Positions 119 through 26,280 of a stretch of DNA of 27,222 nt are shown here, piece by piece (position 1 is the first letter of the stretch; each line of letters begins with the position of its first letter). A program made the position numbers and the translations under genes. Under the pieces are notes generated by a model that was given only the letters and a program-made list of their open reading frames with translations, was not told where the DNA came from and did no database searches. This DNA comes from Deltaproteobacteria bacterium YD0425bin51 (GTDB lineage: Bacteria; Desulfobacterota; Desulfobacteria; Desulfobacterales; YD0425bin51): assembly GCA_002753225.1 (NCBI GenBank), contig PDZS01000015.1, positions 1 to 27,222 on the forward strand. Reading direction: 5' to 3'.

Positions 119-1765
119 TTATTTCTTAAACCTTACTGCGAAACCCTGAATAGTACCAGTATCAAGTCCATGTAAAGGACGAATTGATGATATTCCATGC
201 ATAAAGTCAAAATAGAATGGTCTTCCATCATTAGTAATTTCAATAGACCATACTTCAAATCCCTGTAAATTTATATAAGGATTAATGTTTTTTTGACCAA
301 CTCCTTTTTGATAGAGAGATGCTAACTCTTCAACTGTCGGCATTCGCCACCCACCACCTTGAATATCCAAGTGTGAAATATAGATTTGTGCTTGATCACG
401 TAGACAAGAATAACCTTTTGGACATGCAATCCATTCAAGGTCAGTTAGTTTATCTAATACTACTCCATTTCCTTTTTGAAAAAAGCGATTAGGATCATTT
501 TTATCTAAAATTGGGGGAGCAAGTATTTGGTGATATTTGGGATCAGTAACAGGCAAAACCCTAGGGAAATTACCAACAATTTTTCTATGAGCGTCACGTT
601 TCCCTGTATTGAAATTAAAATAATAGGCAGCTTCTTCGCTTTCTACTTCATTGGACCATGGGCAGCATTCTCCAATATCAATAAGCTCTGTTACTGGAAA
701 ACCATGTTTATTTTTAGAGTTTGTATCATAAAGCGTAGATAATTCGTCTATGGTTGGGAGCCTCCAATGACTAAACCCGCCACCTCTAAAAGTTTTACAA
801 AATAAGTTGGCGTCCCACCAGGTTATTGCTTTCCCATTATCTTGGACAGCCCATATAAGACCAGTTTTAGTATCTAATACAGTTTCATTATTTTTTAATA
901 TAAAGCGATTATCTTTTGGTGTTTCATCCTGCTCAATATATTTCTGTTCAATTTTTAAATCAGGAACTTTTTCTTGTTTTTTTATAATAACAACTCCTCT
1001 TTGTTCTTCAGGATTAAAATAAAATTTACCTTTTAAACTTGTTGACTCCCAAGGAATTTGCTTTTTTTGTGATAATTCTTCAACAGATATGCGTACTTGT
1101 TTGAACATTTCCTCAATAGTAAGGCCAGGAGTTCGTATATGCTTTAAAATTGCAGAAGTATAAATTCCATTATTTTGAGAACCATCAGAAGCTGTTTTTC
1201 CAGGTGAAGTTGCATATGCAACAATAGATCCAGATGGAGCATCCATAAATGCTAAACCTTGTGATTTTACTCCTCTACTCCAGCTTCTTTCAAATGGGTT
1301 GTTTCGGCAGGCATCTAAAATAACAATATTTGTTTTTGATCCGGCATTTTCCATTTCAGAAAGTACTCTATCAGCACGTACACAATCGTATTCAACATCT
1401 TTTTCATTATCTAAAGCAGCATCAACTGGAATAAGATAGTTAATTCCATTTACTTGTATTCCATGACCTGCATAAAAAAATAATCCAATATCAAAATTTT
1501 TAAGTTTTTCACCAAATTCATCTATTGCTTTTTTCATGGCTTTTTGATCACAGTTGATGCGATCAATTACTACAAAGTTTAATTCTTTTAATGCTATTTT
1601 TATTCCCTTAACATCATTAACAGGATTTTTTAGTGTACCTCCATGAGTATAATTTGCATTACCCATAAGTAATGCAATTCGTTTTTCAGATGAAGCAATA
1701 CATGGTATTGCGGAAAAAATAACTGAAGCAAAAATAAGAGTTAATAAAGCAATTTTATTTTTCAT
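119..1765 (-). CDS. Secreted caspase-family (peptidase C14) protein with two C-terminal DUF1566 (Lcl C-terminal-like) domains
   Basis: The N-terminal signal peptide is MKNKIALLTLIFASVIFSAIPCIAS. The caspase His and Cys dyad motifs FFYAGHGIQV and IVILDACRNN are both present. Two C-terminal repeats (TGLIWAVQDNG...WDANLFC...GGGFSHWRLPTIDELSTLYD and TDLEWIACPKG...GGGWRMPTVEELASLYQ) carry the WR(L/M)PT-x-EL signature of DUF1566. Confidence 0.7.
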   Translation of the reverse strand: MKNKIALLTLIFASVIFSAIPCIASSEKRIALLMGNANYTHGGTLKNPVNDVKGIKIALKELNFVVIDRINCDQKAMKKAIDEFGEKLKNFDIGLFFYAGHGIQVNGINYLIPVDAALDNEKDVEYDCVRADRVLSEMENAGSKTNIVILDACRNNPFERSWSRGVKSQGLAFMDAPSGSIVAYATSPGKTASDGSQNNGIYTSAILKHIRTPGLTIEEMFKQVRISVEELSQKKQIPWESTSLKGKFYFNPEEQRGVVIIKKQEKVPDLKIEQKYIEQDETPKDNRFILKNNETVLDTKTGLIWAVQDNGKAITWWDANLFCKTFRGGGFSHWRLPTIDELSTLYDTNSKNKHGFPVTELIDIGECCPWSNEVESEEAAYYFNFNTGKRDAHRKIVGNFPRVLPVTDPKYHQILAPPILDKNDPNRFFQKGNGVVLDKLTDLEWIACPKGYSCLRDQAQIYISHLDIQGGGWRMPTVEELASLYQKGVGQKNINPYINLQGFEVWSIEITNDGRPFYFDFMHGISSIRPLHGLDTGTIQGFAVRFKK

Positions 1766-12824: not shown

Positions 12825-13553
12825 TTAAATTGGAACAATCTCTAAATCTCCCCATGCTCCTAGTTTATCATCTATTATAATAACTATTCCTATTATCCCA
12901 TTAATATTTTTACCTGATCTTATAGCTTTATCTATATCTTTTTTTGATTTAACCATATTACCAATTGCAGTAGCACAAGAATCAGCAAGAGAACATGAAT
13001 GAGATACTACGCATACAGCATCAGCCTTTCCAAAACTTAAAGATGGTCCAACCTTTCCTGATGATGTACAAACTGCCATAGGTTTGTTAATTGAATTGAT
13101 TTTAAGTCCTATATGCAGACTAAGTGGTGAATCTCCAGCAAAAATTCCTACAGTTGCTGGATTGTCTAATTTAAGGAATATATCTCCGCCATTTTCAACA
13201 ATAACTTGAGGGCTGTAGGGAAGAATGCCATAGCCAACATGTTCAGCAATTGCTCCTGCAACAGATGCCATAGGGCCTACTCCTGCTTTTTTTGATGATT
13301 CTGACATTTCAGAAACAATAATGTGAACAGGTTCATTTATTTCCCATGGGACAAGGGTTTTAGCAAAGGATGGGTATCTTTTTATATAATTTTCTAAATA
13401 CCCTCTATATTCTAATACCAGTTCTCTAGTTATATCTTCAAGTGGAATTATGGAATGGACATGCAAATCAGTTTCTTTTACAACAACTCTATACTTTATA
13501 AGGTCATTTTTTTTTATTAAATTGCGATATGTACGTTCTTTATATTTCTCCAT
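12825..13553 (-). CDS. UPF0280-like conserved protein (ApbE-like superfamily), function unknown
   Basis: The N-terminal YRNLIKKNDLIKYRVVVKETDLHV pattern and the Gly/Ser-rich core (GVGPMASVAGAIAE, CTSSGKVGPSLSFGKADAVCV) recall the UPF0280/COG2122 family, recognised from memory only. A 14-nt overlap with the upstream ATP-grasp gene. Confidence 0.4.
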   Translation of the reverse strand: MEKYKERTYRNLIKKNDLIKYRVVVKETDLHVHSIIPLEDITRELVLEYRGYLENYIKRYPSFAKTLVPWEINEPVHIIVSEMSESSKKAGVGPMASVAGAIAEHVGYGILPYSPQVIVENGGDIFLKLDNPATVGIFAGDSPLSLHIGLKINSINKPMAVCTSSGKVGPSLSFGKADAVCVVSHSCSLADSCATAIGNMVKSKKDIDKAIRSGKNINGIIGIVIIIDDKLGAWGDLEIVPI

Positions 13554-14322
13554 TTTTAATAAGACTATCCATGAGGTTTATATAATCTATTCCAAGTTTT
13601 TTTAATCCTTCATGCCCATATTTCATATTTGCTTCTATTACATAAGCTTTATCTTTATAAATACATATATCTATTCCCACATCATTCCAATTAGTTTTTT
13701 TTGCTGTATATAAAGCAAGCTCATTAACACTTTGAGGTATAGGATCAAAACTGATTTTTCCACCAAGCGATACATTTGTCCGAAACTCATTGTTTTGTGC
13801 TATTCTCCAGTAAGAACAAATGATTTTTTCCCCAATTATCAAAACTCTTATATCTCGATTAATTGGTAAATATTCTTGAATATATGCAACATGAGTTTTG
13901 GATAGATAAATATATAAATCATCATAATTTTTAATAAGAAAGACACCTGCTCCTTTTGCTGATCCCCGTGCAATTTTAGCTATAAAAGGAAATTCAAAGT
14001 AATCAGTAATTTTTTTTTTTTGTTTTGTGCCATAAAAAATTTTTGTTCTTGGATGAGGGATATCAAGTAATTCAAATAAAGCTGTTTGTTTAATTTTATC
14101 CTGTGCATAAGCATAATTGCTATAACTCGGGAAAATATTTTTTCCCATTGTATTAAACAACTCACCATAAAGGCTTGTTGGATAATATATTTTACTAGCT
14201 GATTTTATAAGAAAAGATATTTCCTGTGGGTAGTCAGATAAATTGGGAAAAACCCCAACTGTTATAACATTTTTACATTTCCTAAGTCTTGAACCTAAAG
14301 CAATTACATTATTTTGCATCAT
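13540..14322 (-). CDS. RimK-like ATP-grasp ligase (glutamate-ligase family), substrate unknown
   Basis: The ATP-grasp motifs FPFIAKIARGSAKGAGVFLI, YIQEYLPINRDIRVLIIGEKII and FRTNVSLGGKI. 260 aa. The CDS contains an A12 homopolymer. Confidence 0.65.
   Translation of the reverse strand: MMQNNVIALGSRLRKCKNVITVGVFPNLSDYPQEISFLIKSASKIYYPTSLYGELFNTMGKNIFPSYSNYAYAQDKIKQTALFELLDIPHPRTKIFYGTKQKKKITDYFEFPFIAKIARGSAKGAGVFLIKNYDDLYIYLSKTHVAYIQEYLPINRDIRVLIIGEKIICSYWRIAQNNEFRTNVSLGGKISFDPIPQSVNELALYTAKKTNWNDVGIDICIYKDKAYVIEANMKYGHEGLKKLGIDYINLMDSLIKNGEI
14010..14021. repeat. A12/T12 homopolymer inside the RimK-like ATP-grasp CDS (encodes K-Q-KKK)
   Basis: Twelve consecutive T on the plus strand (A on the coding strand). 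The tract is in frame in the current sequence. Confidence 0.7.
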
Positions 14323-16810: not shown

Positions 16811-17779
16811 TTATTCAGAAAAAGTGCCATTATTATATAAATCAAAATCAGGTATTTCCCGTTTAAAAAAATCGCGCATTTTATTTATTAAATTTTGTTC
16901 AATTTGACGCACTCTCTCTCTTGAAATTCCATATCGGTCTCCCATTTCTTGAAGTGTAATGGGATCATCTGAGAATACTCGCTGTTCAAACAATTCAATC
17001 TCTCTTTTAGTCAGCTTCTTTTTAAATTCATCAATTTTAGAGTAAAGAAGTTTATCCATTTCTTTTTTAGCCATTTGGTCTTCAATTGATTTAGCATCTG
17101 TTGATAAAAATTCTATTCTCTCAGTGTCTGAATCTTCCTTCAGAGGAGCATCTAATGATATATCCCAGCTATCTAACCTTTGATCCATGTCAATGACTTC
17201 ACGTTCAGGAACACCTAATCTCTCTGAAAGAAGCTTAGGTTTTGGATCAAATCCTTCTTCTATTAACTTTTGTTTTTCTTTTTTGAGTCTAAAAAAAAGT
17301 TTACGCTGTCCCTGAGTTGTTCCAATTTTTACAAGCCTCCAGTTATCCATAATAAATTTAAGAATATAGGCTTTTATCCAGAATGAAGCATAATATGAAA
17401 ATTTAACACCTTTATAGGGGTTAAATTTTTTAGCAGCTTGTATAAGGCCAATATTTCCTTCTTGAATTAAATCTAGAAGGTTGTGCATCCAAACCTTTTG
17501 AAATTCCAAAGCTATTTTAACAACTAATCTAAGATTAGAAACAATTAAAGTATAGGCTGCCTCCTTATCTTCATTTTCAAAAACGCTCATTGCAAGCTTG
17601 TTTTCTTGTTCTCTTGTAAGAAGTTTATAATTACTTATTTCAGATAGATAACGCTGTAGGGGATCATATTTAATAATTGCAGTTTCATATATTTTCTTTT
17701 CTGGCTGAATATAATTATAATCTTCATTTGATTCTAAAGCAGAATTGTTTTCCAAGTCATTGTTTCTATTTTTTTCCAT
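16811..17779 (-). CDS. rpoH: RNA polymerase sigma-32 (heat-shock) factor RpoH
   Basis: Sigma-70 region 2 (LIVSNLRLVVKIALEF...GNIGLIQAAKKFNPYKGVKFSYYASFWIKAYI). An RpoH-box-like QRKLFFRLKK. Region 4 HTH ITLQEMGDRYGISRERVRQIEQNLINKMR. 322 aa. Confidence 0.8.
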   Translation of the reverse strand: MEKNRNNDLENNSALESNEDYNYIQPEKKIYETAIIKYDPLQRYLSEISNYKLLTREQENKLAMSVFENEDKEAAYTLIVSNLRLVVKIALEFQKVWMHNLLDLIQEGNIGLIQAAKKFNPYKGVKFSYYASFWIKAYILKFIMDNWRLVKIGTTQGQRKLFFRLKKEKQKLIEEGFDPKPKLLSERLGVPEREVIDMDQRLDSWDISLDAPLKEDSDTERIEFLSTDAKSIEDQMAKKEMDKLLYSKIDEFKKKLTKREIELFEQRVFSDDPITLQEMGDRYGISRERVRQIEQNLINKMRDFFKREIPDFDLYNNGTFSE

Positions 17780-17867: not shown

Positions 17868-17941
<74 letters not shown>

Positions 17942-17953
17942 CTTACAAAATCA

Positions 17954-17988
17954 AGGGTTTACAGAATGTAATCTGTAAACCTTTTTTG
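17954..17988 (+). terminator. Rho-independent terminator downstream of tRNA-Arg
   Basis: A GGGTTTACAG - loop (aatgtaat) - CTGTAAACC stem followed by TTTTTT. Confidence 0.65.
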
Positions 17989-18370: not shown

Positions 18371-18411
18371 TAAAACAGGTGAATGGGCACATATAAGTTA
18401 AATTGGAAAAT

Positions 18412-18418
18412 AAGGAGG
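18412..18418 (+). promoter_or_regulatory. Shine-Dalgarno site (AAGGAGG) for the ATP-grasp-GH3 gene
   Basis: A perfect AAGGAGG 6 nt upstream of the ATG at 18425. This supports 18425 rather than 18383 as the start. Confidence 0.6.
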
Positions 18419-18424
18419 TTTTTT

Positions 18425-21001
18425 ATGTACGGCTGGATACTACATGATAATACTGAAATCGCAGAGATTAAAAGGGCTACTGACGAAGCTGCCAAAGCTA
18501 ATGTCACTATTGAATTGGTTTATCCTAAGGATATTGAATTGATTTTAGAACATTCTTATGATGGGGTAATTTACGTAAGAGGTGTGAAAAAACAATTGCC
18601 TGAGTTTGCTATTGCAGCTTTTTTGAACGAAGTTGACTACTATAATCTTGCGATTCTTCGTCAGTTAGAGACATTAGGTGTTCTTTGTATAAATACAGCA
18701 GATGCCATATTAAACTCAAGCGATAAACTTTTGACCTCACAGCTTTTGATATCACATAACATACCTGTTGCAAAAACCGCTTTACTGCGGGCTAATTCAG
18801 ATTTGGAAATTTTAGAATCTGAGATTGGTTTACCTATGATAGCAAAGGTTATGAATGGAAGTAAAGGAAAAGGAGTCATTCTTATACAGACAAAAGCTGA
18901 GTTAAAGAATCTCTTAGAGCTTTATGTAGCCGGAGGTTTTAGAAGTGAAATTTTACTTCAGACGTATATAGCTTCCAGCAAGGGTAAGGATTTACGAGTA
19001 TTTATAATAGGCGGTAAAGCATTGGCCTGTTTCATTAGGCAAAACGCCAGTGATGGATTTAAGTCCAACATTTCAGTAGGAGGATTTGGCTCTCCGCATC
19101 CTCTAACAGATTCTATCAAAAAAATAGCTGAAAAAGTTGCTAAAATTCTTGGTTTGAATATGGCAGGAATTGATCTTATGTTTGGACCAGATGGCTATAT
19201 TGTTGGAGAGGCTAATTCACTCCCTGGTTTCCAGGGGTTGGAGGCTGCTACAGGGATTAATGTTCCGGTCAACGCCTTGTTTAGTATTGCTGGGCAATTG
19301 ATTTCTCGTCCTGCTCCACCATGGCGCATTAAGCAAATATTTTCAGAATCTATGAAAATGCCGATGCCGGAAGTTCTTTTACATCAGTCTAAAACTATAC
19401 TGCCTGGTGTTGCACGTTCTTTGTTCAATCACTGCCAAGAGGCTCAAAATATTGTATTGTTTAATATTATTAATTTTTGCCGAGATACTGAATTCGGCAA
19501 AGGGCATAATTTTTATGATATTAAATCGATCGATGATTTCCGAGAACGAGTACCTATATCAAGCTGGCCAGATTATGAGATCTATGCACAACGAATGGCA
19601 AATGGGGAGAAAAATATTCTTTTCCCTGGTGCTCCAGAGTATTTTATAACTACATCAGGGACTACATCTAATAAATTAAAAATGATTCCAGAGAGTAATT
19701 ATGGTGCTATTGCCAAAAAGGCTATATCGTTGGTTAGGCGGAATTTACTTTTTTCTCTGTTTCATGATATAGGTAAGTTAGGTCATTTTTTTGCACTTTC
19801 GAATTCTTCAAACCTTTCAGTTACTCCTGCAGGTATTCCTATTGGTTTTGCTTCTGGAATTACCAGATCACAGGTTGATGCATCTTTATCATCTTTAGAT
19901 GCTTATCCATCTGAAATCCTGAACATTTCAGATAATGAAAGTGTTGATTATCTTATCATGCGTTTTGCTCTTCATCACAAAGACATGATGGCTTTAATCG
20001 GTAATAATGCTGGACGGATGAGAGTGCTTGCCGATTATGCGCAAGAGCATGCAGAAGAGATTATTTCCGATATAGAGAAAGGAACAATCAGTAAAAGATT
20101 ATCCATCTCTGCAGAAGAAAGGAGATTGCTTGAAGAAAAATTAAAGCCTTCCCCTGAAAGGGCAGCTGAATTAAGAGATATTATAAAGAAAAACAATGGT
20201 GGATTTCTCCCCAAACATTATTGGCCTCAAATTCGTTTAGCTTGTTTCTGGCTGTCAAGTACAGTAGGCAATTACATAGATGATATACGTCCTTTGTTAA
20301 ACGATAGCGTTATATATATGGATGCAGGGTATGGTTCAAGTGAATTGAAGATCAATATCCCTATGAAACCTAATGAATCTTTTGCTCCAATAGCTCCATT
20401 TGTAGCATTTTTTGAGTTTTTGCCAATTGGTGGAATAAAGCCTCTACTTGCACATGAGCTAACCGATGGTTCTATGTATGAACTTATAATAACTACATAT
20501 TCAGGACTATACCGATATAATATTCAAGATTTAGTTAAAGTATGCGGTTTTACAGGCAATACTCCTAATATAGAATTTGTTATTAAAAGTATAGAGGTAG
20601 CTAATATTTCTGATGAAAAGATACCGGGATCAGTTATTAATTCATGTGTAAGAGAAACTGCAAGCTCCATAGGTATATCTATTAAGCAGTGTCAGGTATA
20701 TCCAGATCAGGATGCACGTAGATATGTTTTTCTTATCGAACCAGAAGGAACTACTTCTAATTTCCCAGTTGATGAATTTCTTATAATCTTGGATAAAACT
20801 CTTAAGGAACAGCATATGGCTTATAGAGTATTTAGAGGACAAAAGCTCATTCATCAACCAGTTATTAGAATTATGCGTCAAGGATGGCAGGAAAGTCTTT
20901 ATCGTGAGAAAATTAAGCCAGGAATTACAACTTCACAAATTAAATTGCCATATATTATTAGCCTTTTGCCTGATCCTACATGGTTTTTAAAAGGGGAATA
21001 A
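18425..21001 (+). CDS. Fusion protein: N-terminal RimK-type ATP-grasp ligase + C-terminal GH3-family adenylate-forming acyl-acid amido synthetase
   Basis: The ATP-grasp motifs GLPMIAKVMNGSKGKGVILIQT, DLRVFIIGGKALACFIRQNASDGFKSNISVGGFGSP and GIDLMFGPDGYIVGEANSLPGFQGLE. The GH3 motifs FRERVPISSWPDYEIYAQRMANGEKNILFPGAPEYFITTSGTTSNKLKMIP (adenylation P-loop-like motif), YMDAGYGSSE (the YxSSE motif) and YRYNIQDLVKVCGF (the YRYR-GD-like motif). 859 aa from the SD-supported ATG. Confidence 0.75.
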   Translation: MYGWILHDNTEIAEIKRATDEAAKANVTIELVYPKDIELILEHSYDGVIYVRGVKKQLPEFAIAAFLNEVDYYNLAILRQLETLGVLCINTADAILNSSDKLLTSQLLISHNIPVAKTALLRANSDLEILESEIGLPMIAKVMNGSKGKGVILIQTKAELKNLLELYVAGGFRSEILLQTYIASSKGKDLRVFIIGGKALACFIRQNASDGFKSNISVGGFGSPHPLTDSIKKIAEKVAKILGLNMAGIDLMFGPDGYIVGEANSLPGFQGLEAATGINVPVNALFSIAGQLISRPAPPWRIKQIFSESMKMPMPEVLLHQSKTILPGVARSLFNHCQEAQNIVLFNIINFCRDTEFGKGHNFYDIKSIDDFRERVPISSWPDYEIYAQRMANGEKNILFPGAPEYFITTSGTTSNKLKMIPESNYGAIAKKAISLVRRNLLFSLFHDIGKLGHFFALSNSSNLSVTPAGIPIGFASGITRSQVDASLSSLDAYPSEILNISDNESVDYLIMRFALHHKDMMALIGNNAGRMRVLADYAQEHAEEIISDIEKGTISKRLSISAEERRLLEEKLKPSPERAAELRDIIKKNNGGFLPKHYWPQIRLACFWLSSTVGNYIDDIRPLLNDSVIYMDAGYGSSELKINIPMKPNESFAPIAPFVAFFEFLPIGGIKPLLAHELTDGSMYELIITTYSGLYRYNIQDLVKVCGFTGNTPNIEFVIKSIEVANISDEKIPGSVINSCVRETASSIGISIKQCQVYPDQDARRYVFLIEPEGTTSNFPVDEFLIILDKTLKEQHMAYRVFRGQKLIHQPVIRIMRQGWQESLYREKIKPGITTSQIKLPYIISLLPDPTWFLKGE

Positions 21002-21003
21002 TT

Positions 21004-22512
21004 ATGAAAAAAGAAAAATGGAACAATAATCATTTTCACATTAAAGTTCCTAACTCTTTAAATTCCATACCAATTGTACAGTCATTTATCAAAAGTTGTG
21101 CTTTGATAATGGATTTTAAGGAACCAGAATTGACTCATTTGGAAATTGTTGCTGAGGAACTAAGCACTAATATTCTTCAACATGCTTACAGATCTGATGA
21201 ATTGGCTAACTTCACCATTGATTGCATACTTAACGTAGATCAGCTGGAAATTATTTTTCGAGATCAAGGACGTCCATTTGATCCTGAGCATTTGCCAGAT
21301 TTTTCGGGTATTGATCCGTCAACTCTTGATGCTCCTGCTGGTTTAGGACTCTATCTTTCTGCCCGTCTCGTGGATCTATTTAATGCAAGAAATCTAGGCT
21401 CCATGGGGAAAGAGATTCGCCTCATTAAAAGGCTTAAAGGCTCTTGGCAATTATCAAAAGAACCTGATGGTTTCCGTCAGATACAGACTTTATATCGCAA
21501 GGAAGATTTTGATATGGTGCAGGTTCGTTCTATGCGTCCTGAAGAAGCTATACAGGTTTCGAGGTTAATTTATGATGTCTATCACTATACCTATATGTCA
21601 GAAATCCCTTATAATCCACATAGACTTAGACAACTGCAAGAAGATGGACGTCTTTACTCCTTTGTAGCAGTTTTGGGAAATGGAGTTGTCGCATCTCATG
21701 TTGCCCTTCAGATTTCACCTGATATGCCAAGACTTGGAGAATATTGTCTTGCCGCTACTTTACCAGAAGCAAGAGGTTATAAATTGGCTGAAAAGGTTGG
21801 TTTAGCTCTTTTAGAGACTGTTATGGGGTTGGGGATAACTGGACTTTATGCTAATTTCACAACAGTCCATACAATTTCACAGCGAAAAAGACAGGGACTT
21901 GGAACTGCTGTAGGATTCTTGTTGGCTCGAAGTCCTGAAACTCTTCAAATGAAAGATATTCTTGAAACAGCCCCACAGAGAGTTTCCACTTTATTGATGT
22001 TTCAGAGCTTAGTTGAACGTGAACCTGTTATCGTATATATTCCTGAACAACATAGAGATTTTATATCTGATATATATTGCCGTTGTAAACTTCCTGTGAA
22101 ATTTGATACTAAAGTTACCGATCTTCCAGATATTAATAGCCAATTGGAGATTTTAATTGAGAAGGAGCGTAATATTGCTAAATTATCGGTGATAGAAGCT
22201 GGGAGGGATTTATTGCCTCAGATCAAGGAACGCCTTTTCGGCTTGCGTCTGAATAATACTTCGGTAGTTTTCTCTTTTTTGAACCTTATGGATCCCCATA
22301 CTCCAAAAGTAGCAGCTATACTTGAAGAAATGGGATTTTTTATAACTGGAGTTTTGCCTTTAGGGATAGGTATTAATGATGCATTGCTGATGACATGTCT
22401 TATTAACTGCGCTCTGGATTATGACAAGATTGAACTTTTTGACAAAGAAAGTAAAGATCTTCTTAATTATGTTCGAAGACAAGATCCTTCTTTACCAAAG
22501 CTATTATTATGA
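21004..22512 (+). CDS. Multidomain protein: RsbW/SpoIIAB-like HATPase (anti-sigma-factor kinase-like) N-terminal domain fused to GNAT-like acyltransferase domain(s)
   Basis: The start ATG is 2 nt after the upstream stop, giving translational coupling. The N-terminus has IVAEELSTNILQHAY and a G2-box-like GLGLYLSARLVDLF, as in HATPase_c_2. The middle has VQVRSMRPEEAIQVSRLIYDVYH...YSFVAVLGNGVVASHVAL...LPEARGYKLAEKVGLALLE, consistent with a GNAT fold and motif A. The C-terminal ~170 aa are unassigned and may be a second acyltransferase-like half. Confidence 0.5.
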   Translation: MKKEKWNNNHFHIKVPNSLNSIPIVQSFIKSCALIMDFKEPELTHLEIVAEELSTNILQHAYRSDELANFTIDCILNVDQLEIIFRDQGRPFDPEHLPDFSGIDPSTLDAPAGLGLYLSARLVDLFNARNLGSMGKEIRLIKRLKGSWQLSKEPDGFRQIQTLYRKEDFDMVQVRSMRPEEAIQVSRLIYDVYHYTYMSEIPYNPHRLRQLQEDGRLYSFVAVLGNGVVASHVALQISPDMPRLGEYCLAATLPEARGYKLAEKVGLALLETVMGLGITGLYANFTTVHTISQRKRQGLGTAVGFLLARSPETLQMKDILETAPQRVSTLLMFQSLVEREPVIVYIPEQHRDFISDIYCRCKLPVKFDTKVTDLPDINSQLEILIEKERNIAKLSVIEAGRDLLPQIKERLFGLRLNNTSVVFSFLNLMDPHTPKVAAILEEMGFFITGVLPLGIGINDALLMTCLINCALDYDKIELFDKESKDLLNYVRRQDPSLPKLLL

Positions 22513-22532: not shown

Positions 22533-23753
22533 ATGTCTGGATTGTTAAGTGTATTTAGAGAACGTAATTATTCTTTTTTCTTTACCGGACAAGCTTTATC
22601 GTTTATCGGAAATTGGATGCAGAGTACCACATTTAACTGGCTTCTATATCAATTTACTGATTCGCCTTTCCTTCTGGGGTCTATGAGTGCTGCTATAAAC
22701 ATTCCATTACTAATTTTAATTCCATATGCTGGTTCTATGGTTGATAGATTTGACCATAGGAGACTACTTTTATTTTTACAGACAATCTTCATGATCCATG
22801 CTTCACTCCTTGGAGCGCTTGCTTATTTTGATTTATTGAATTTGACATTAATTGTTGCTATGGGATGCATTCAAAGTTTTTTAAATGCTTTCGATGGTCC
22901 TGCTAGGCAGGCTTTAGTTCCTCAATTGCTGAATGATCGCAGTAAAATGCCTGCAGCAATAGCACTTAACTCAGTAATGGTAAATACTACCCGTACTTTT
23001 GGACCTCCTTTAGCAGGTTGGATACTGACTAAAAACAGTTCTGTATCTTGCTTTCTACTAAATGCTTTAAGCTATTTTTTTATGTTATTAGCTTTGATGG
23101 CACTTCAATTCAGTAACTCTGATAATAAAGGCAAACATAGGGAATATACGAGTGCTTTAGATAATCTGCTGTTTATTGTTAGTCTCCCATCGCTGAGATA
23201 TCTGTTTATATCTTATATAGTTGTTGCTGTGGCAACAATGTCTGTTTATGTTCTGCTGCCAATCTGGTCTGCTGATATACTAAAAGCTGGTCCACAGGGA
23301 TTAGGTTTGATGATGGGAGGGATTGGAGCAGGGGCTTTACTTGGAGCTATTATTGTAGGTTCCCAAAGTAACCAAGTCCGTTTATGGCTATTATTTCGTT
23401 ATTCCTCTTTACTGCTGGGATTTGCTTTAATATTGATTTCTTCTATAAATGGTATTACCCCTATTATCATGGTTACTGTAATGCTAGGTATGGCATATAT
23501 AGGACAAAGTGTTGCTGCAAACACACTTCTTCAGATGAGTGTTGATGATTCTCGTCGCGGTGGCATCATGGCATTCTATCTACTTGTTGCATTTGGTTCT
23601 ATACCAGTTGGCAATGTTTTAGGTGGGTGGCTTGGACATATCATTGGATTGAAAGGTGCAGCTATGACAGCAGGTATAACAGTTTTGATCTCCATTTTTT
23701 TTCTTTGGAGAACTAGTAGCAGAGTTATGCAATTAGTATTCAAAGAAAACTGA
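22533..23753 (+). CDS. MFS transporter (EntS/MFS_3-like putative exporter)
   Basis: A 406-aa protein with ~12 hydrophobic segments. The N-terminal FFFTGQALSFIGNWMQ and the loop motif SMVDRFDHRRLL (the MFS D-R-x-x-R-R-like motif between TM2 and TM3). An RBS-like GGAAAGG lies upstream of the ATG. Confidence 0.8.
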   Translation: MSGLLSVFRERNYSFFFTGQALSFIGNWMQSTTFNWLLYQFTDSPFLLGSMSAAINIPLLILIPYAGSMVDRFDHRRLLLFLQTIFMIHASLLGALAYFDLLNLTLIVAMGCIQSFLNAFDGPARQALVPQLLNDRSKMPAAIALNSVMVNTTRTFGPPLAGWILTKNSSVSCFLLNALSYFFMLLALMALQFSNSDNKGKHREYTSALDNLLFIVSLPSLRYLFISYIVVAVATMSVYVLLPIWSADILKAGPQGLGLMMGGIGAGALLGAIIVGSQSNQVRLWLLFRYSSLLLGFALILISSINGITPIIMVTVMLGMAYIGQSVAANTLLQMSVDDSRRGGIMAFYLLVAFGSIPVGNVLGGWLGHIIGLKGAAMTAGITVLISIFFLWRTSSRVMQLVFKEN

Positions 23754-23784: not shown

Positions 23785-24477
23785 ATGAAAAATAAAAAGG
23801 CTAATATTTTAGTAATTGAAGATGACATGGCAATTTGTCGTGGATTATTAGACGTTTTAGTATTTAATGGATATGAAGCAGAAGGTTCATTTGATGGCAA
23901 AGAAGGCTTTAAAAAGGGATTAGAAGGCAAATATGACCTTATTATGTTAGATGTTATGCTTCCAAATATGGATGGTTTTACTATTTGTCGAGAAATAAGA
24001 AAGAAAAAACCAAAACAACCAATTATTATGATAACAGCAAAAGGATCTGAAGATGATATTATAGCTGGATTTAAGGCTGGAGCAGATGATTATGTACCCA
24101 AGCCATTTTCATTAAGAGAACTCATGGTTAGAGTTGAAGCTATTTTGAGACGTAGTGGAAAAAATATAGGGGATGAGCAAATAGAATATCTCGGTATATT
24201 TTTTGACGGAAAAACCCTTAATGCAAAATATCAAGGAAAAATTATTGAAATGACAAGAAGAGAAATGGATATAATATTTTACTTGTATAAAAACAATGAT
24301 CGTATTGTATCCAAAAAAGAGCTTTTATCTTCCATCTGGGGATATCAAAATCCTGACATAGAAACTCGTACAGTTGATATTCATATGTTAAAACTTAGGA
24401 AAAAGATTATTGATTTAACCAATATTCAATCCTTTATCGCAACTATACGTGGTGAAGGATATAGATTAGAATTATAA
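23785..24477 (+). CDS. OmpR/PhoB-family DNA-binding response regulator
   Basis: The REC domain (ILVIEDDMAICRGL...LIMLDVMLPNMDG...IIMITAKG) plus a winged-helix output (TVDIHMLKLRKKI...GEGYRLE). Confidence 0.88.
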   Translation: MKNKKANILVIEDDMAICRGLLDVLVFNGYEAEGSFDGKEGFKKGLEGKYDLIMLDVMLPNMDGFTICREIRKKKPKQPIIMITAKGSEDDIIAGFKAGADDYVPKPFSLRELMVRVEAILRRSGKNIGDEQIEYLGIFFDGKTLNAKYQGKIIEMTRREMDIIFYLYKNNDRIVSKKELLSSIWGYQNPDIETRTVDIHMLKLRKKIIDLTNIQSFIATIRGEGYRLEL

Positions 24478-24480
24478 TAT

Positions 24481-26280
24481 TTGAAAAAATTACTCATATT
24501 AATAATTATTTTCTGCCTTTTTTTATCAATACCACTTTACTATTTTATCTTACGAACATATTTAAGCCTTGAACAAGAAGAGGTTTCAAAATTCAGATAT
24601 TTTGGAGAAACTCTTTTCGATCAAATGGAGGGTTTTCTTGCTGAATTAGTTGTTAAAGAGGAAAGTAGAGCAGTCGATGAATACAATTATTATTATAACC
24701 CTAAAGGGTTATCTTCTGTCATTTCACCTCTTTCAAAACTTCCTTATCCTTATTATATAATAGGATATTTACAAAATAATCCAGATGGCTCTTTTGAAAC
24801 CCCTGTTCTTGAAAAAAGACAAAATATCCCACCAAATTTAGCTTCTCTAATTACAAAGCTTACTGATGTAAATAATTCTTTTAATTCAAAAAGAGCTTCT
24901 ATTATTCATGAAAATATTGAAGCTCCCAGTCAGTCTTATACTGTTGCATCTAAAGAAGTAAAAAAAGATGAAAGTTTTGGAGGTAAATTTTTAGATTTTT
25001 CAAGATCTCAAAAGCAAAAGGTATATTTAGGTCAAGAAGAGAAAAGAGTTGAAGAAATTCCAGCATCTCAAGCGTTAAACCTTTCAAAACAGGAACAAAA
25101 TTATCCGCAAAATGAGATCATAAAAGGCGAAATCTATCATAATCAGGCAGAAATAACTCCAATGCAGTCATTAATTATAAATAATAGTGAAATTTTTATT
25201 TTCAGAAGAATTATGATAGCTAATAAAATATATAGACAGGGATTTGTTATTAATGCAAAAGCATTTTTAAATAATTTAGCAAATCTATATTTTAATGGAC
25301 AGCCAATGGCAAATTTTACTGGTTTAAAACTAAATATAAGTGACAGAGGTTATGAAATCTCATCATTTTTTTCTGGTGTTCAAATCAAAAACCTCAATTT
25401 TTCATTAAAGAGAGTATTCGGCCGTCCATTTTCTTTTCTGTCAGCAACATTATTATGTGAAGATATCCCAAAATCTTCTGGAAGAAAAACCTTAAACATT
25501 ATGATGATTATTTTGAATGCAATAATTTTTATAGGGATGTTTACAATTTATAAGAGTGCAAAAACAGTAATGGATTTATCTAATAAAAAAGCTAGCTTTG
25601 TTTCTTCTGTAACCCATGAGCTTAAAACTCCGCTTACAAATATTCGTATGTATATTGAAATGCTAGAACAGGGTATTGCAGGAAATATTGAACGTGAAGC
25701 AGAATATTTCCATATTTTGGAGAATGAGACTAGCAGGCTTTCACGTTTAATTAACAATGTATTGGAATTTTCGAAAATAGAACAAAAGCGATTTGATATT
25801 AAAGAAGGAACTTTTGATGATGTAATAAAAGATGTTTACGAAATAATGGGTAAAAGTCTTAGAAAGGAAGGTTTTATTTTTAAGATCAATTTAGATTCCC
25901 ATAGATTTTCATATGATCGTGAAGTTATGATTCAGGTAATGATAAATCTAATAGAAAACAGTATAAAATTTGGAACAGATGGAAATTTAAAAGAAATTGT
26001 GGTTAATATAAGACCTTATAAAAAGTGGATCAAAATAAGTGTATCAGATACAGGACAAGGTATTCCAGCAAAGGAGCTAACCAAAATATTTAATGATTTT
26101 TATCGGGCTGAAAATGCTAAAAATAAAAGAGGAACAGGTATTGGGTTAGCTTTGGTGAAAAAGCTTATTATAGGTATGGGAGGCCGGGTGTATGCAAAAA
26201 ATAATGAAAAAACACCCGGCTGCACAATAACTCTTATGCTTCCTAATATTTCCCAAACTCATTATCGTCAAGAGGTATGA
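24481..26280 (+). CDS. Sensor histidine kinase with a large periplasmic sensing domain (TM - ~300-aa periplasmic - TM - HisKA - HATPase_c)
   Basis: The TTG start lies two codons after the regulator stop, in the same frame. TM1 is LLILIIIFCLFLSIPLYYFIL and TM2 is TLNIMMIILNAIIFIGMFTIY. The H-box is FVSSVTHELKTPLTNIRMYIEM, the N-box MINLIENSIKFG, and the G-boxes DTGQGIP and GTGIGLALVKKLIIGMGG. Confidence 0.8.
   Translation: MKKLLILIIIFCLFLSIPLYYFILRTYLSLEQEEVSKFRYFGETLFDQMEGFLAELVVKEESRAVDEYNYYYNPKGLSSVISPLSKLPYPYYIIGYLQNNPDGSFETPVLEKRQNIPPNLASLITKLTDVNNSFNSKRASIIHENIEAPSQSYTVASKEVKKDESFGGKFLDFSRSQKQKVYLGQEEKRVEEIPASQALNLSKQEQNYPQNEIIKGEIYHNQAEITPMQSLIINNSEIFIFRRIMIANKIYRQGFVINAKAFLNNLANLYFNGQPMANFTGLKLNISDRGYEISSFFSGVQIKNLNFSLKRVFGRPFSFLSATLLCEDIPKSSGRKTLNIMMIILNAIIFIGMFTIYKSAKTVMDLSNKKASFVSSVTHELKTPLTNIRMYIEMLEQGIAGNIEREAEYFHILENETSRLSRLINNVLEFSKIEQKRFDIKEGTFDDVIKDVYEIMGKSLRKEGFIFKINLDSHRFSYDREVMIQVMINLIENSIKFGTDGNLKEIVVNIRPYKKWIKISVSDTGQGIPAKELTKIFNDFYRAENAKNKRGTGIGLALVKKLIIGMGGRVYAKNNEKTPGCTITLMLPNISQTHYRQEV

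Follow-up and report, generated by a model that had tools for sequence, protein, structure and literature searches.

The 27,222-nucleotide stretch of contig PDZS01000015.1 from Deltaproteobacteria bacterium YD0425bin51 (assembly GCA_002753225.1), referred to here as the window, carries on its plus strand a gene in which a RimK-type ATP-grasp ligase is joined to a GH3-family adenylating amido synthetase. Positions 18383 to 21001 of that strand form a single uninterrupted open reading frame (ORF) in the ORF list. Its start was placed at the ATG at 18425, and not at the upstream in-frame ATG at 18383, because a strong ribosome-binding site, AAGGAGG, could be read from the sequence 6 nt before the former. 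The product of 858 amino acids is 100% identical to an NCBI protein (P0001) from a Desulfobacterales metagenome-assembled genome (MAG). NCBI names this protein 'RimK family alpha-L-glutamate ligase' and leaves the GH3 half unnamed, so that this half is masked by the current annotation. The features of the gene are as follows, with the predicted local distance difference test abbreviated as pLDDT.

18412 to 18418, plus strand: ribosome-binding site AAGGAGG
18425 to 21001, plus strand: RimK-GH3 fusion gene, 858 amino acids and a stop codon (ORF list, Pfam, NCBIfam, the identical NCBI protein and 12 full-length homologues)
18434 to 18709, plus strand: RimK pre-ATP-grasp N-domain Rimk_N, residues 4 to 95 (PF18030, 32.6 bits against a cut-off of 26.4)
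18719 to 19270, plus strand: RimK-type ATP-grasp catalytic domain, residues 99 to 282 (PF08443, 121.6 bits against 21, E 3.8e-35)
19271 to 19423, plus strand: junction region, residues 283 to 333, of which only about residues 285 to 295 are predicted to be true linker and the rest to be GH3 N-terminal helices (match limits of relatives; pLDDT 86-93)
19424 to 20305, plus strand: GH3 N-terminal domain, residues 334 to 627, with the motif TSGTTSNKLK at residues 410 to 419 (PF03321, 203.3 bits against 23.6, E 6.6e-60)
20390 to 20584, plus strand: GH3 central domain GH3_M, residues 656 to 720, with YRYNIQD at residues 696 to 702 (PF23571, 69.2 bits against 23.6, E 3.3e-19)
20648 to 20959, plus strand: GH3 C-terminal mobile domain GH3_C, residues 742 to 845, with QIKLP and its lysine K840 (PF23572, 45.0 bits against 23.6, E 2e-11)

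A fusion of the two enzymes in one polypeptide had been claimed in an earlier reading made from the letters alone (the sequence-only reading), and the analysis confirmed it. One uninterrupted gene encodes a complete RimK-type ATP-grasp ligase (residues 1 to about 290) followed by a complete three-domain GH3 enzyme (residues about 295 to 858), with Pfam and NCBIfam domains found in both halves. In the profile hidden Markov model scan that this reading had put forward as a check, all RimK and GH3 Pfam domains exceeded their curated cut-offs, and the RimK half scored 192.8 bits on the NCBIfam family model rimK_fam (TIGR00768; cut-off 143.4). The motifs it had listed in both halves are likewise present and match, in alignments, the catalytic motifs of enzymes with solved structures. 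For the RimK half, alignment to E. coli RimK and to the RimK structures 5zct, 4iwx and 7qyr gave the Mg-ATP and catalytic residues as K101, K141, D189-x-R191, S214-N215, G248-I-D250-L and E262-A-N264. Among these, K101, K141, D189, R191, S214, N215, D250, E262 and N264 are invariant across the 12 full-length homologues. The FRSNLHRGG motif of RimK reads FKSNISVGG in the fusion, and in the window copy alone QEYI is replaced by QTYI. For the GH3 half, alignment to JAR1 paired T410-SGTTSNKL-K419 with SSGTSQGRPK, Y636-GSSE640 with YGSSE, Y696-RYNIQ-D702 with YRYRLGD, and Q838-I-K840-LP (residues 838 to 842) with QFKMP; the YGSSE motif sits just upstream of the GH3_M domain. QIKLP, with its C-terminal lysine K840, is a further GH3 motif beyond those named earlier, and it is also unvaried in an alignment that includes fusions from Firmicutes (A5). 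In the 12 full-length homologues, S411, G412, T413, K419, Y636, G637, S639, E640, Y696, R697, D702, Q838 and K840 do not vary.

The position of the junction was deduced from relatives that carry one half only, and from an AlphaFold model. Standalone RimK relatives align to residues 1 to 293 of the fusion and standalone GH3 relatives from residues 291 to 305, while residues 290 to 340 are modelled as confident helices of the GH3 N-domain. On these grounds, the two halves are predicted to be joined almost without a linker, at a boundary near residues 285 to 295. The sequence-only reading had guessed a boundary at 310 to 330, which is about 30 residues too far towards the C-terminus. The model, with a pLDDT of 79.2 and a pTM (predicted template modelling score) of 0.72, was compared with solved structures by Foldseek. 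As that reading had suggested looking for, both folds were recovered: template modelling (TM) scores on the target were 0.77-0.83 for the plant structures GH3.5, GH3.6, GH3.11 and GH3.12, and scores for RimK structures were 0.85-0.89. No solved chain spanning both halves was found among the listed Foldseek matches.

Judged by profile scores, both halves clearly belong to known superfamilies at the family level and not at the equivalog level. Orthology of the RimK half to S6-modifying RimK, LysX, MptN or CofF was rejected, with NCBIfam equivalog scores of 128.9, 131.8, 127.4 and 83.5 bits against cut-offs of 331, 275.6, 350 and 300, respectively. The half has the same pre-ATP-grasp and ATP-grasp fold as the RimK family of alpha-L-glutamate ligases (RimK of E. 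coli and Pseudomonas, LysX/ArgX, MptN, CofF and mammalian RIMKLA/RIMKLB), from which the fusion differs by its attached GH3 enzyme and by these sub-cut-off scores. The ATP-grasp domain of CphA1 is a weak match to residues 99 to 205. With the plant GH3 enzymes (JAR1/GH3.11, PBS3/GH3.12, GH3.5 and GH3.6), the fusion shares three Pfam domains, three nucleotide motifs, the C-terminal lysine and the fold, at an identity of only about 21%. Because domains, motifs and fold are shared, a two-step reaction of adenylation and amidation is expected for the GH3 half. The fusion differs from the plant enzymes in being prokaryotic, in carrying an ATP-grasp enzyme at its N-terminus, and in sharing its operon with genes for an exporter and an RsbW-like protein with a putative GNAT domain.

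The statement in the sequence-only reading that bacterial GH3 homologues are uncharacterised no longer holds in full. OlsH, the lyso-ornithine lipid synthetase of planctomycetes, is a bacterial GH3 enzyme that ligates a free fatty acid to ornithine, and was characterised in 2025 (PMC12493201). OlsH and the fusion are both GH3-family enzymes of bacteria. With ATP, OlsH couples a free acid and an amino acid to an N-acyl amino acid, and the authors of that work propose the same kind of synthesis for other bacterial GH3s (PMC12493201). The fusion, however, belongs to a different clade and has different neighbours. The OlsH equivalog model (NF052613, cut-off 620) matched only in part, with 69.2 bits, so that the fusion was rejected as an OlsH equivalog, and the window genes showed no OlsI-type O-acyltransferase. 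Bacterial and archaeal GH3 enzymes are nearly unexplored, OlsH being the only one with a known reaction that we found.

Homologues of the fusion were collected by a word-index search over 5.8 billion proteins, which finds homologues but is unable to size the family. It returned 13 full-length fusions, including those of Sporomusa malonica (69% identity) and Thiorhodococcus fuscus (44%). Repeating the search with the mixed alignment A5 gave the same 16 proteins and nothing new. In an exhaustive search of 1.84 billion representatives, the best 150 matches contained 8 full-length representatives together with many standalone GH3 proteins (35-46% identical to the C-terminal half) and standalone RimK proteins (39-46% identical to the N-terminal half). 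The figure of 8 is an undercount, since species-level genomes hold 30 fused loci. These were found by scanning the GH3-half alignment against one genome per species (185,579 species), which yielded 334 confirmed stretches; locus counts refer to the best 78 of them, with profiles built from our own alignments, unless 84 is given as the total.

The RimK-GH3 fusion is present in 30 of the 78 loci. A further 24 have no fusion and a separate RimK-like gene within 10 kb, which often overlaps the GH3 gene and stands in the same order (loci L055, L071 and L072, for example). A neighbour-joining tree of RimK domains does not separate fused from split forms, which are intermixed. There are two large fused clades, one of Firmicutes and the other comprising the window, Sporomusa, Thiorhodococcus/Chromatium, Verrucomicrobiota, Lentisphaerae and Delongbacteria, with the split relatives L015, L018, L055, L071 and L072 nested within it. 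Since the two enzymes are fused or adjacent across many phyla, comparison of the loci argues that they work in one pathway. The proposal of the sequence-only reading that both chemistries serve successive steps of a single pathway thereby gains independent support. Its remark that the architecture is not a described enzyme family is also supported: no paper was found that describes the fusion, its split-gene relatives, or the link of this GH3 clade to RsbW-like/GNAT proteins, exporters or STAS/PP2C genes. The architecture is no oddity of a single genome, being carried by at least 30 species-level genomes. Cultured carriers include Sporomusa malonica DSM 5090, S. silvacetica, Thiorhodococcus drewsii, T. 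minor and T. fuscus.

Some relatives carry additional modules, and their operons may contain two or three GH3 and one or two RimK genes. The protein P0008, one of the 13 full-length fusions, is a single chain of 1411 residues; the idea that it represents a fusion joined to the downstream neighbour was ruled out, as its sequence reads RimK-GH3-GH3. Such extra-module variants are expected of a modular assembly of several amide bonds. The higher-order form is carried by L004, L005 and L033 (Verrucomicrobiota MAG; gene at 4561-8796 in L004). In an Alistipes MAG (L045, 8708-15790), two consecutive RimK-GH3 fusion genes are followed by a third GH3 gene. Locus L040 (9000-11575) has a RimK part nearly identical to that of the fused L073 (6858-9434), with RimK and GH3 in overlapping ORFs of different frames. 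This split is probably a frameshift or an assembly error, and some 'split' cases may therefore be fusions. The closest standalone RimK protein (P0079) lies on a contig of 1.6 kb, with a fragment resembling the neighbouring partner gene (see below) upstream and no gene downstream.

Downstream of the fusion, the window continues on the plus strand with four genes.

21004 to 22512, plus strand: partner gene, with an RsbW/SpoIIAB-like HATPase_c_2 domain, a putative GNAT-fold acyltransferase domain and a C-terminal domain
22533 to 23753, plus strand: MFS_3 (EntS-like) exporter (PF05977, E 1.8e-49; NCBIfam EntS 94 bits, below cut-off)
23785 to 24477, plus strand: OmpR-type response regulator (Pfam)
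24481 to 26280, plus strand: histidine kinase (Pfam)

The partner gene begins 2 nt after the fusion stop codon and is predicted from this arrangement to be translationally coupled to the fusion. In its RsbW-like domain, the N-box Asn, G1 and G2 are all intact, and both the HATPase_c_2 domain and the corresponding fold were found; scores on two NCBIfam RsbW equivalog models, 41.1 and 34 bits, are below the cut-offs of 145 and 155. The putative GNAT domain occupies residues of about 180 to 330, and the C-terminal domain folds confidently in the model. Compared with RsbW/SpoIIAB-STAS-PP2C modules, the partner differs in its fusion to a putative GNAT domain, in having no obvious sigma-factor target, and in its low equivalog score (41 against 145). 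No STAS ORF was found within the 27-kb window. A sigma-70 gene at 16811-17779 was considered as target of the RsbW-like domain and dropped, as it is divergent, separated by a tRNA gene and a terminator-like hairpin, and not conserved in related loci. The gaps before the response regulator and the histidine kinase are 31 and 3 nt, and a convincing terminator was not found. These two genes are possibly co-transcribed with the fusion operon; their membership of the system is uncertain because they are not conserved in related loci. A listed defence system was also considered and rejected, as neither the fusion nor its partner nor the MFS pump had a match in PADLOC.

A homologous partner adjoins the GH3 gene in all seven loci first inspected, with homology over the full length at an identity of only 22-26% to the window copy. 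The subfamily to which the window partner belongs (48-68% identity) is found with a standalone GH3 gene and an MFS_3 gene in L013. Locus L012 (1917-9722) has a glutamine-synthetase-like gene in place of GH3 beside a partner of this type, with the MFS_3 pump and an Asparaginase_2 gene nearby. The partners of the window (21004-22512) and of L001 (8503-9981), L003 (8541-10001), L004 (3101-4558) and L006 (8501-9973) were compared. RsbW-like domains of the window type keep the N-box Asn and the G1 Asp (EELSTNILQHA and RDQG). In the partner subfamily of most other fusions, both residues are replaced (EEIFAYIMEAF and SNHG), which points to a non-catalytic binding domain in that subfamily.

Clustering the neighbours of 84 loci gave the following companions.

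ABC exporter half-transporters, usually paired: 38 of 84 loci
Partner protein: 33 of 84 loci
Standalone RimK: 29 of 84 loci
MFS exporter: 24 of 84 loci
STAS protein of about 100 residues with the canonical phospho-site Y(I/T)SS(A/S)GLR: 15 of 84 loci
SpoIIE-type (PP2C) phosphatase with Cache/HAMP: 12 of 84 loci
PGA_cap (CapA-like) protein: 8 of 84 loci
Standalone RsbW-like protein: 7 of 84 loci

An exporter of the ABC, MFS or MatE type was present in 59 of the 78 loci, and in 38 of the 43 that span at least 15 kb. In 46 of the 78, one or more partner-switching components were encoded. Three types of operon could be distinguished.

Type A (Firmicutes, archaea): phosphatase, STAS, GH3, RimK, two ABC genes, GH3 or RimK-GH3, RsbW-like
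Type B (Bacteroidota and others): one or two partners, GH3, GH3, RimK, MFS
Type C (the window type): RimK-GH3, partner, MFS

In loci from Methanobrevibacter, Methanomassiliicoccales and Firmicutes (L084, 7674-18193; L091, 9021-20831; L047, 8966-20587; L049, 2750-13812), one operon combines GH3, RimK, a Cache/HAMP SpoIIE-type phosphatase, STAS, an ABC exporter pair and an RsbW-like kinase. The STAS gene (YISSAGLR) abuts a GH3 gene there, and the standalone RsbW-like kinase gene overlaps the end of the second GH3 gene. No sigma factor is present in the operons of these four loci. A PGA_cap (CapA-like) gene stands alongside the GH3 cluster in L042 (11533-12690) and in seven other loci.

On the basis of these observations we propose, with moderate confidence, that the fusion is a bifunctional amide ligase, independent of nonribosomal peptide synthetases (NRPS), that forms, one after the other, two amide bonds in a small exported molecule, an acyl-amino-acid or pseudopeptide. 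As we infer the substrates and the order of steps, the GH3 half would adenylate a carboxylic acid (ATP to AMP and PPi) and transfer the acyl group to an amino acid at its amino group. The free alpha-carboxylate of the conjugate would then be phosphorylated by the RimK half (ATP to ADP and Pi) and ligated to L-glutamate or a similar amino acid through the amino group of the latter, possibly repeatedly. The opposite order of steps would also be chemically possible. The putative GNAT domain of the partner may supply an N-acyl transfer or cap, its RsbW-like domain may give regulatory input of the partner-switching kind, and the product would be exported by the MFS_3 pump.

The individual reactions have precedents. 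Formation of an acyl-adenylate and transfer to an amino acid are established for plant GH3s and for OlsH (PMC12493201), and members of the RimK family, RIMKLA and RIMKLB, also work on small acceptors such as N-acetylaspartate and citrate, to which glutamate is ligated (PMC3872778). Pairs of an adenylating amide synthetase and an ATP-grasp ligase build dapdiamide (DdaG and DdaF) and E-64 (Cp1B and Cp1D), and the same logic of acyl-adenylate plus acyl-phosphate applies to cystargolide (CysC/CysD) (PMC12568646). The ligases of those pathways are separate proteins, whereas here they form one chain, or are encoded by adjacent genes in relatives. To our knowledge, none of the adenylating enzymes of the dapdiamide, E-64 and cystargolide pathways is a GH3. 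Two ligases in one chain are known from the bifunctional glutathione synthetase GshF and from cyanophycin synthetase CphA1, in which an ATP-grasp enzyme and an unrelated ATP-dependent ligase form amide bonds one after the other. Those chains have a gamma-glutamylcysteine ligase or a Mur-ligase-like domain as their second module; in the fusion, which is likewise a two-ligase single chain, it is a GH3. With respect to dapdiamide and E-64 biosynthesis, what is new is the GH3-type adenylating enzyme and the single-chain form.

Several findings weigh against this proposal. The remaining 24 of the 78 loci, several of them on short contigs, have no RimK gene within reach, and GH3 can therefore work without RimK. 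Between the window partner and those of the closest fusion homologues, identity amounts to just 22-26%. Partners of the window type also occur without GH3, with a glutamine-synthetase-like (GlnA-like) ligase and MFS_3 in L012, with MFS_3 only in L014 and alone in L094, so that the link between partner and fusion is not obligatory; around this subfamily, the ATP-dependent ligase is the variable part. The presence of exporters is suggestive and not decisive, as they are common neighbours in general. Finally, the substrates of the prototype enzymes RimK and LysX are protein C-termini, not small molecules.

Modification of a protein is one of the alternatives to be weighed: the RimK half, the GH3 half or both would act on a protein, for instance by attaching glutamates at its C-terminus in the way RimK acts on S6 or LysX on LysW, as part of a modifying or regulatory system. 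The best solved relatives of the RimK half are indeed S6-modifying RimK enzymes. We nevertheless consider this unlikely, since the equivalog models of RimK, LysX, MptN and CofF score far below their cut-offs, a purely intracellular modification leaves the exporters in 38 of 43 longer loci unexplained, and the C-termini of the STAS proteins are neither acidic nor conserved like the tails of S6 and LysW. In a variant of this explanation, the ligase is itself the output of a partner switch, an RsbW-like protein inhibiting it until displaced by unphosphorylated STAS. The STAS genes with canonical phospho-serine motif that abut GH3 genes in relatives (15 of the 84 loci), the RsbW-like genes that overlap the end of the second GH3 gene (7 of 84) and the Cache/HAMP PP2C phosphatases in shared operons (12 of 84) all favour such a switch, as do the N-box Asn, G1 and G2 retained in the window domain and its predicted coupling to the fusion; the 27-kb window, on the other side, has no STAS gene. 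Regulation by partner switching is, however, compatible with a ligase for a small exported molecule, and only the protein substrate sets the two explanations apart.

The small molecule might also be a lipid. GH3 would then join a fatty acid to an amino acid and RimK would add glutamate, and the product would be a biosurfactant or a lipid of the membrane or surface, in place of a soluble metabolite. Fatty acids and ornithine are indeed the substrates of OlsH, the one bacterial GH3 for which biochemistry was found (PMC12493201). An AMP-binding enzyme and a carrier protein are encoded just upstream of the partner gene in the Sporomusa malonica locus and in L006, which is compatible with acyl-carrier-dependent N-acylation by the putative GNAT domain, and in L006 and L013 patatin-like lipase genes adjoin the cluster. 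Only 3 of the 84 loci, however, have the AMP-binding and carrier pair, the OlsH model reaches 69 bits against its cut-off of 620, and the window shows no OlsI-type O-acyltransferase; we give a lipid product a low probability. It is in any case a special case of the proposed exported conjugate, with the same enzymology and a lipid substrate. Least probable, and in our view very unlikely, is the intracellular tailoring of a cofactor or metabolite, in which RimK would add a glutamate tail in the manner of MptN or CofF, GH3 would have an unrelated or salvage role, and the fusion would serve co-regulation only. MptN (127 bits) and CofF (83 bits) are among the better NCBIfam matches of the RimK half, and relatives are common in methanogenic archaea. 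Both scores lie far under the cut-offs of 350 and 300, though, and many carriers are without those cofactors; exporters and multiple GH3 copies are unexpected for cofactor tailoring, and repeated fusion or adjacency argues for functional coupling.

Taken more broadly, the related loci might represent an unrecognised and widespread class of operons in which GH3 and RimK assemble an exported pseudopeptide, and in which the ligases, in place of a sigma factor, are the output of the RsbW/STAS/PP2C module, with the RsbW-like protein, free or fused to GNAT, as an 'anti-enzyme' factor. This generalisation is offered tentatively, as a possibility about which we remain rather doubtful. The hosts of these operons are gut and rumen Firmicutes, Bacteroidota, Verrucomicrobiota, purple sulfur bacteria, Desulfobacterota, Methanobrevibacter and Methanomassiliicoccales. 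Since gut and rumen Firmicutes, Bacteroidales and methanogens often carry the cluster, its product could matter to host-associated communities. The GH3 clade is now defined and comes with a testable pathway hypothesis, the coupling of GH3 to RimK and an exporter. Should a secreted acyl-amino-acid or pseudopeptide prove to be the product, a GH3-based route would be added to the NRPS-independent amide natural products, and a naturally fused two-ligase biocatalyst would be gained. The recurrent link to STAS, RsbW-like and PP2C proteins, with no evident sigma-factor target, is a lead on partner switching at the level of enzymes.

Further observations concern the surroundings of the fusion operon in the window. 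Between the divergent sigma-70 gene and the operon lie a tRNA-Arg(TCT) gene (17868-17942, plus strand) and then a 13-bp hairpin with a T-run (17953-17984). The G+C content at 19-24 kb is 0.35-0.38, slightly above that of most of the window (0.26-0.34). The tRNA gene and hairpin, the G+C content, and the 69% identity of the fusion to that of the Negativicute Sporomusa, against 22-26% for the partner, suggest horizontal transfer and module shuffling of the operon.

A second RimK-like gene lies on the minus strand at 13540-14322. It encodes a short ATP-grasp protein of 259 amino acids (PF08443, E 1.6e-26) in which a pre-ATP-grasp domain was not detected, and stands in a minus-strand operon with genes for a DUF4292 protein, a long TPR protein and a sigma-70 family protein. 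Because it scored only 73 bits on the profile of the fusion RimK half, it was assigned to a different RimK lineage. Near the start of the window (119-1765, minus strand), a gene for a protein of 547 amino acids encodes a caspase-like Peptidase_C14 domain fused to two Lcl C-terminal domains, and adjoins genes for a hybrid histidine kinase with two receiver domains and for CheC/CheX-like and CheY-like proteins.

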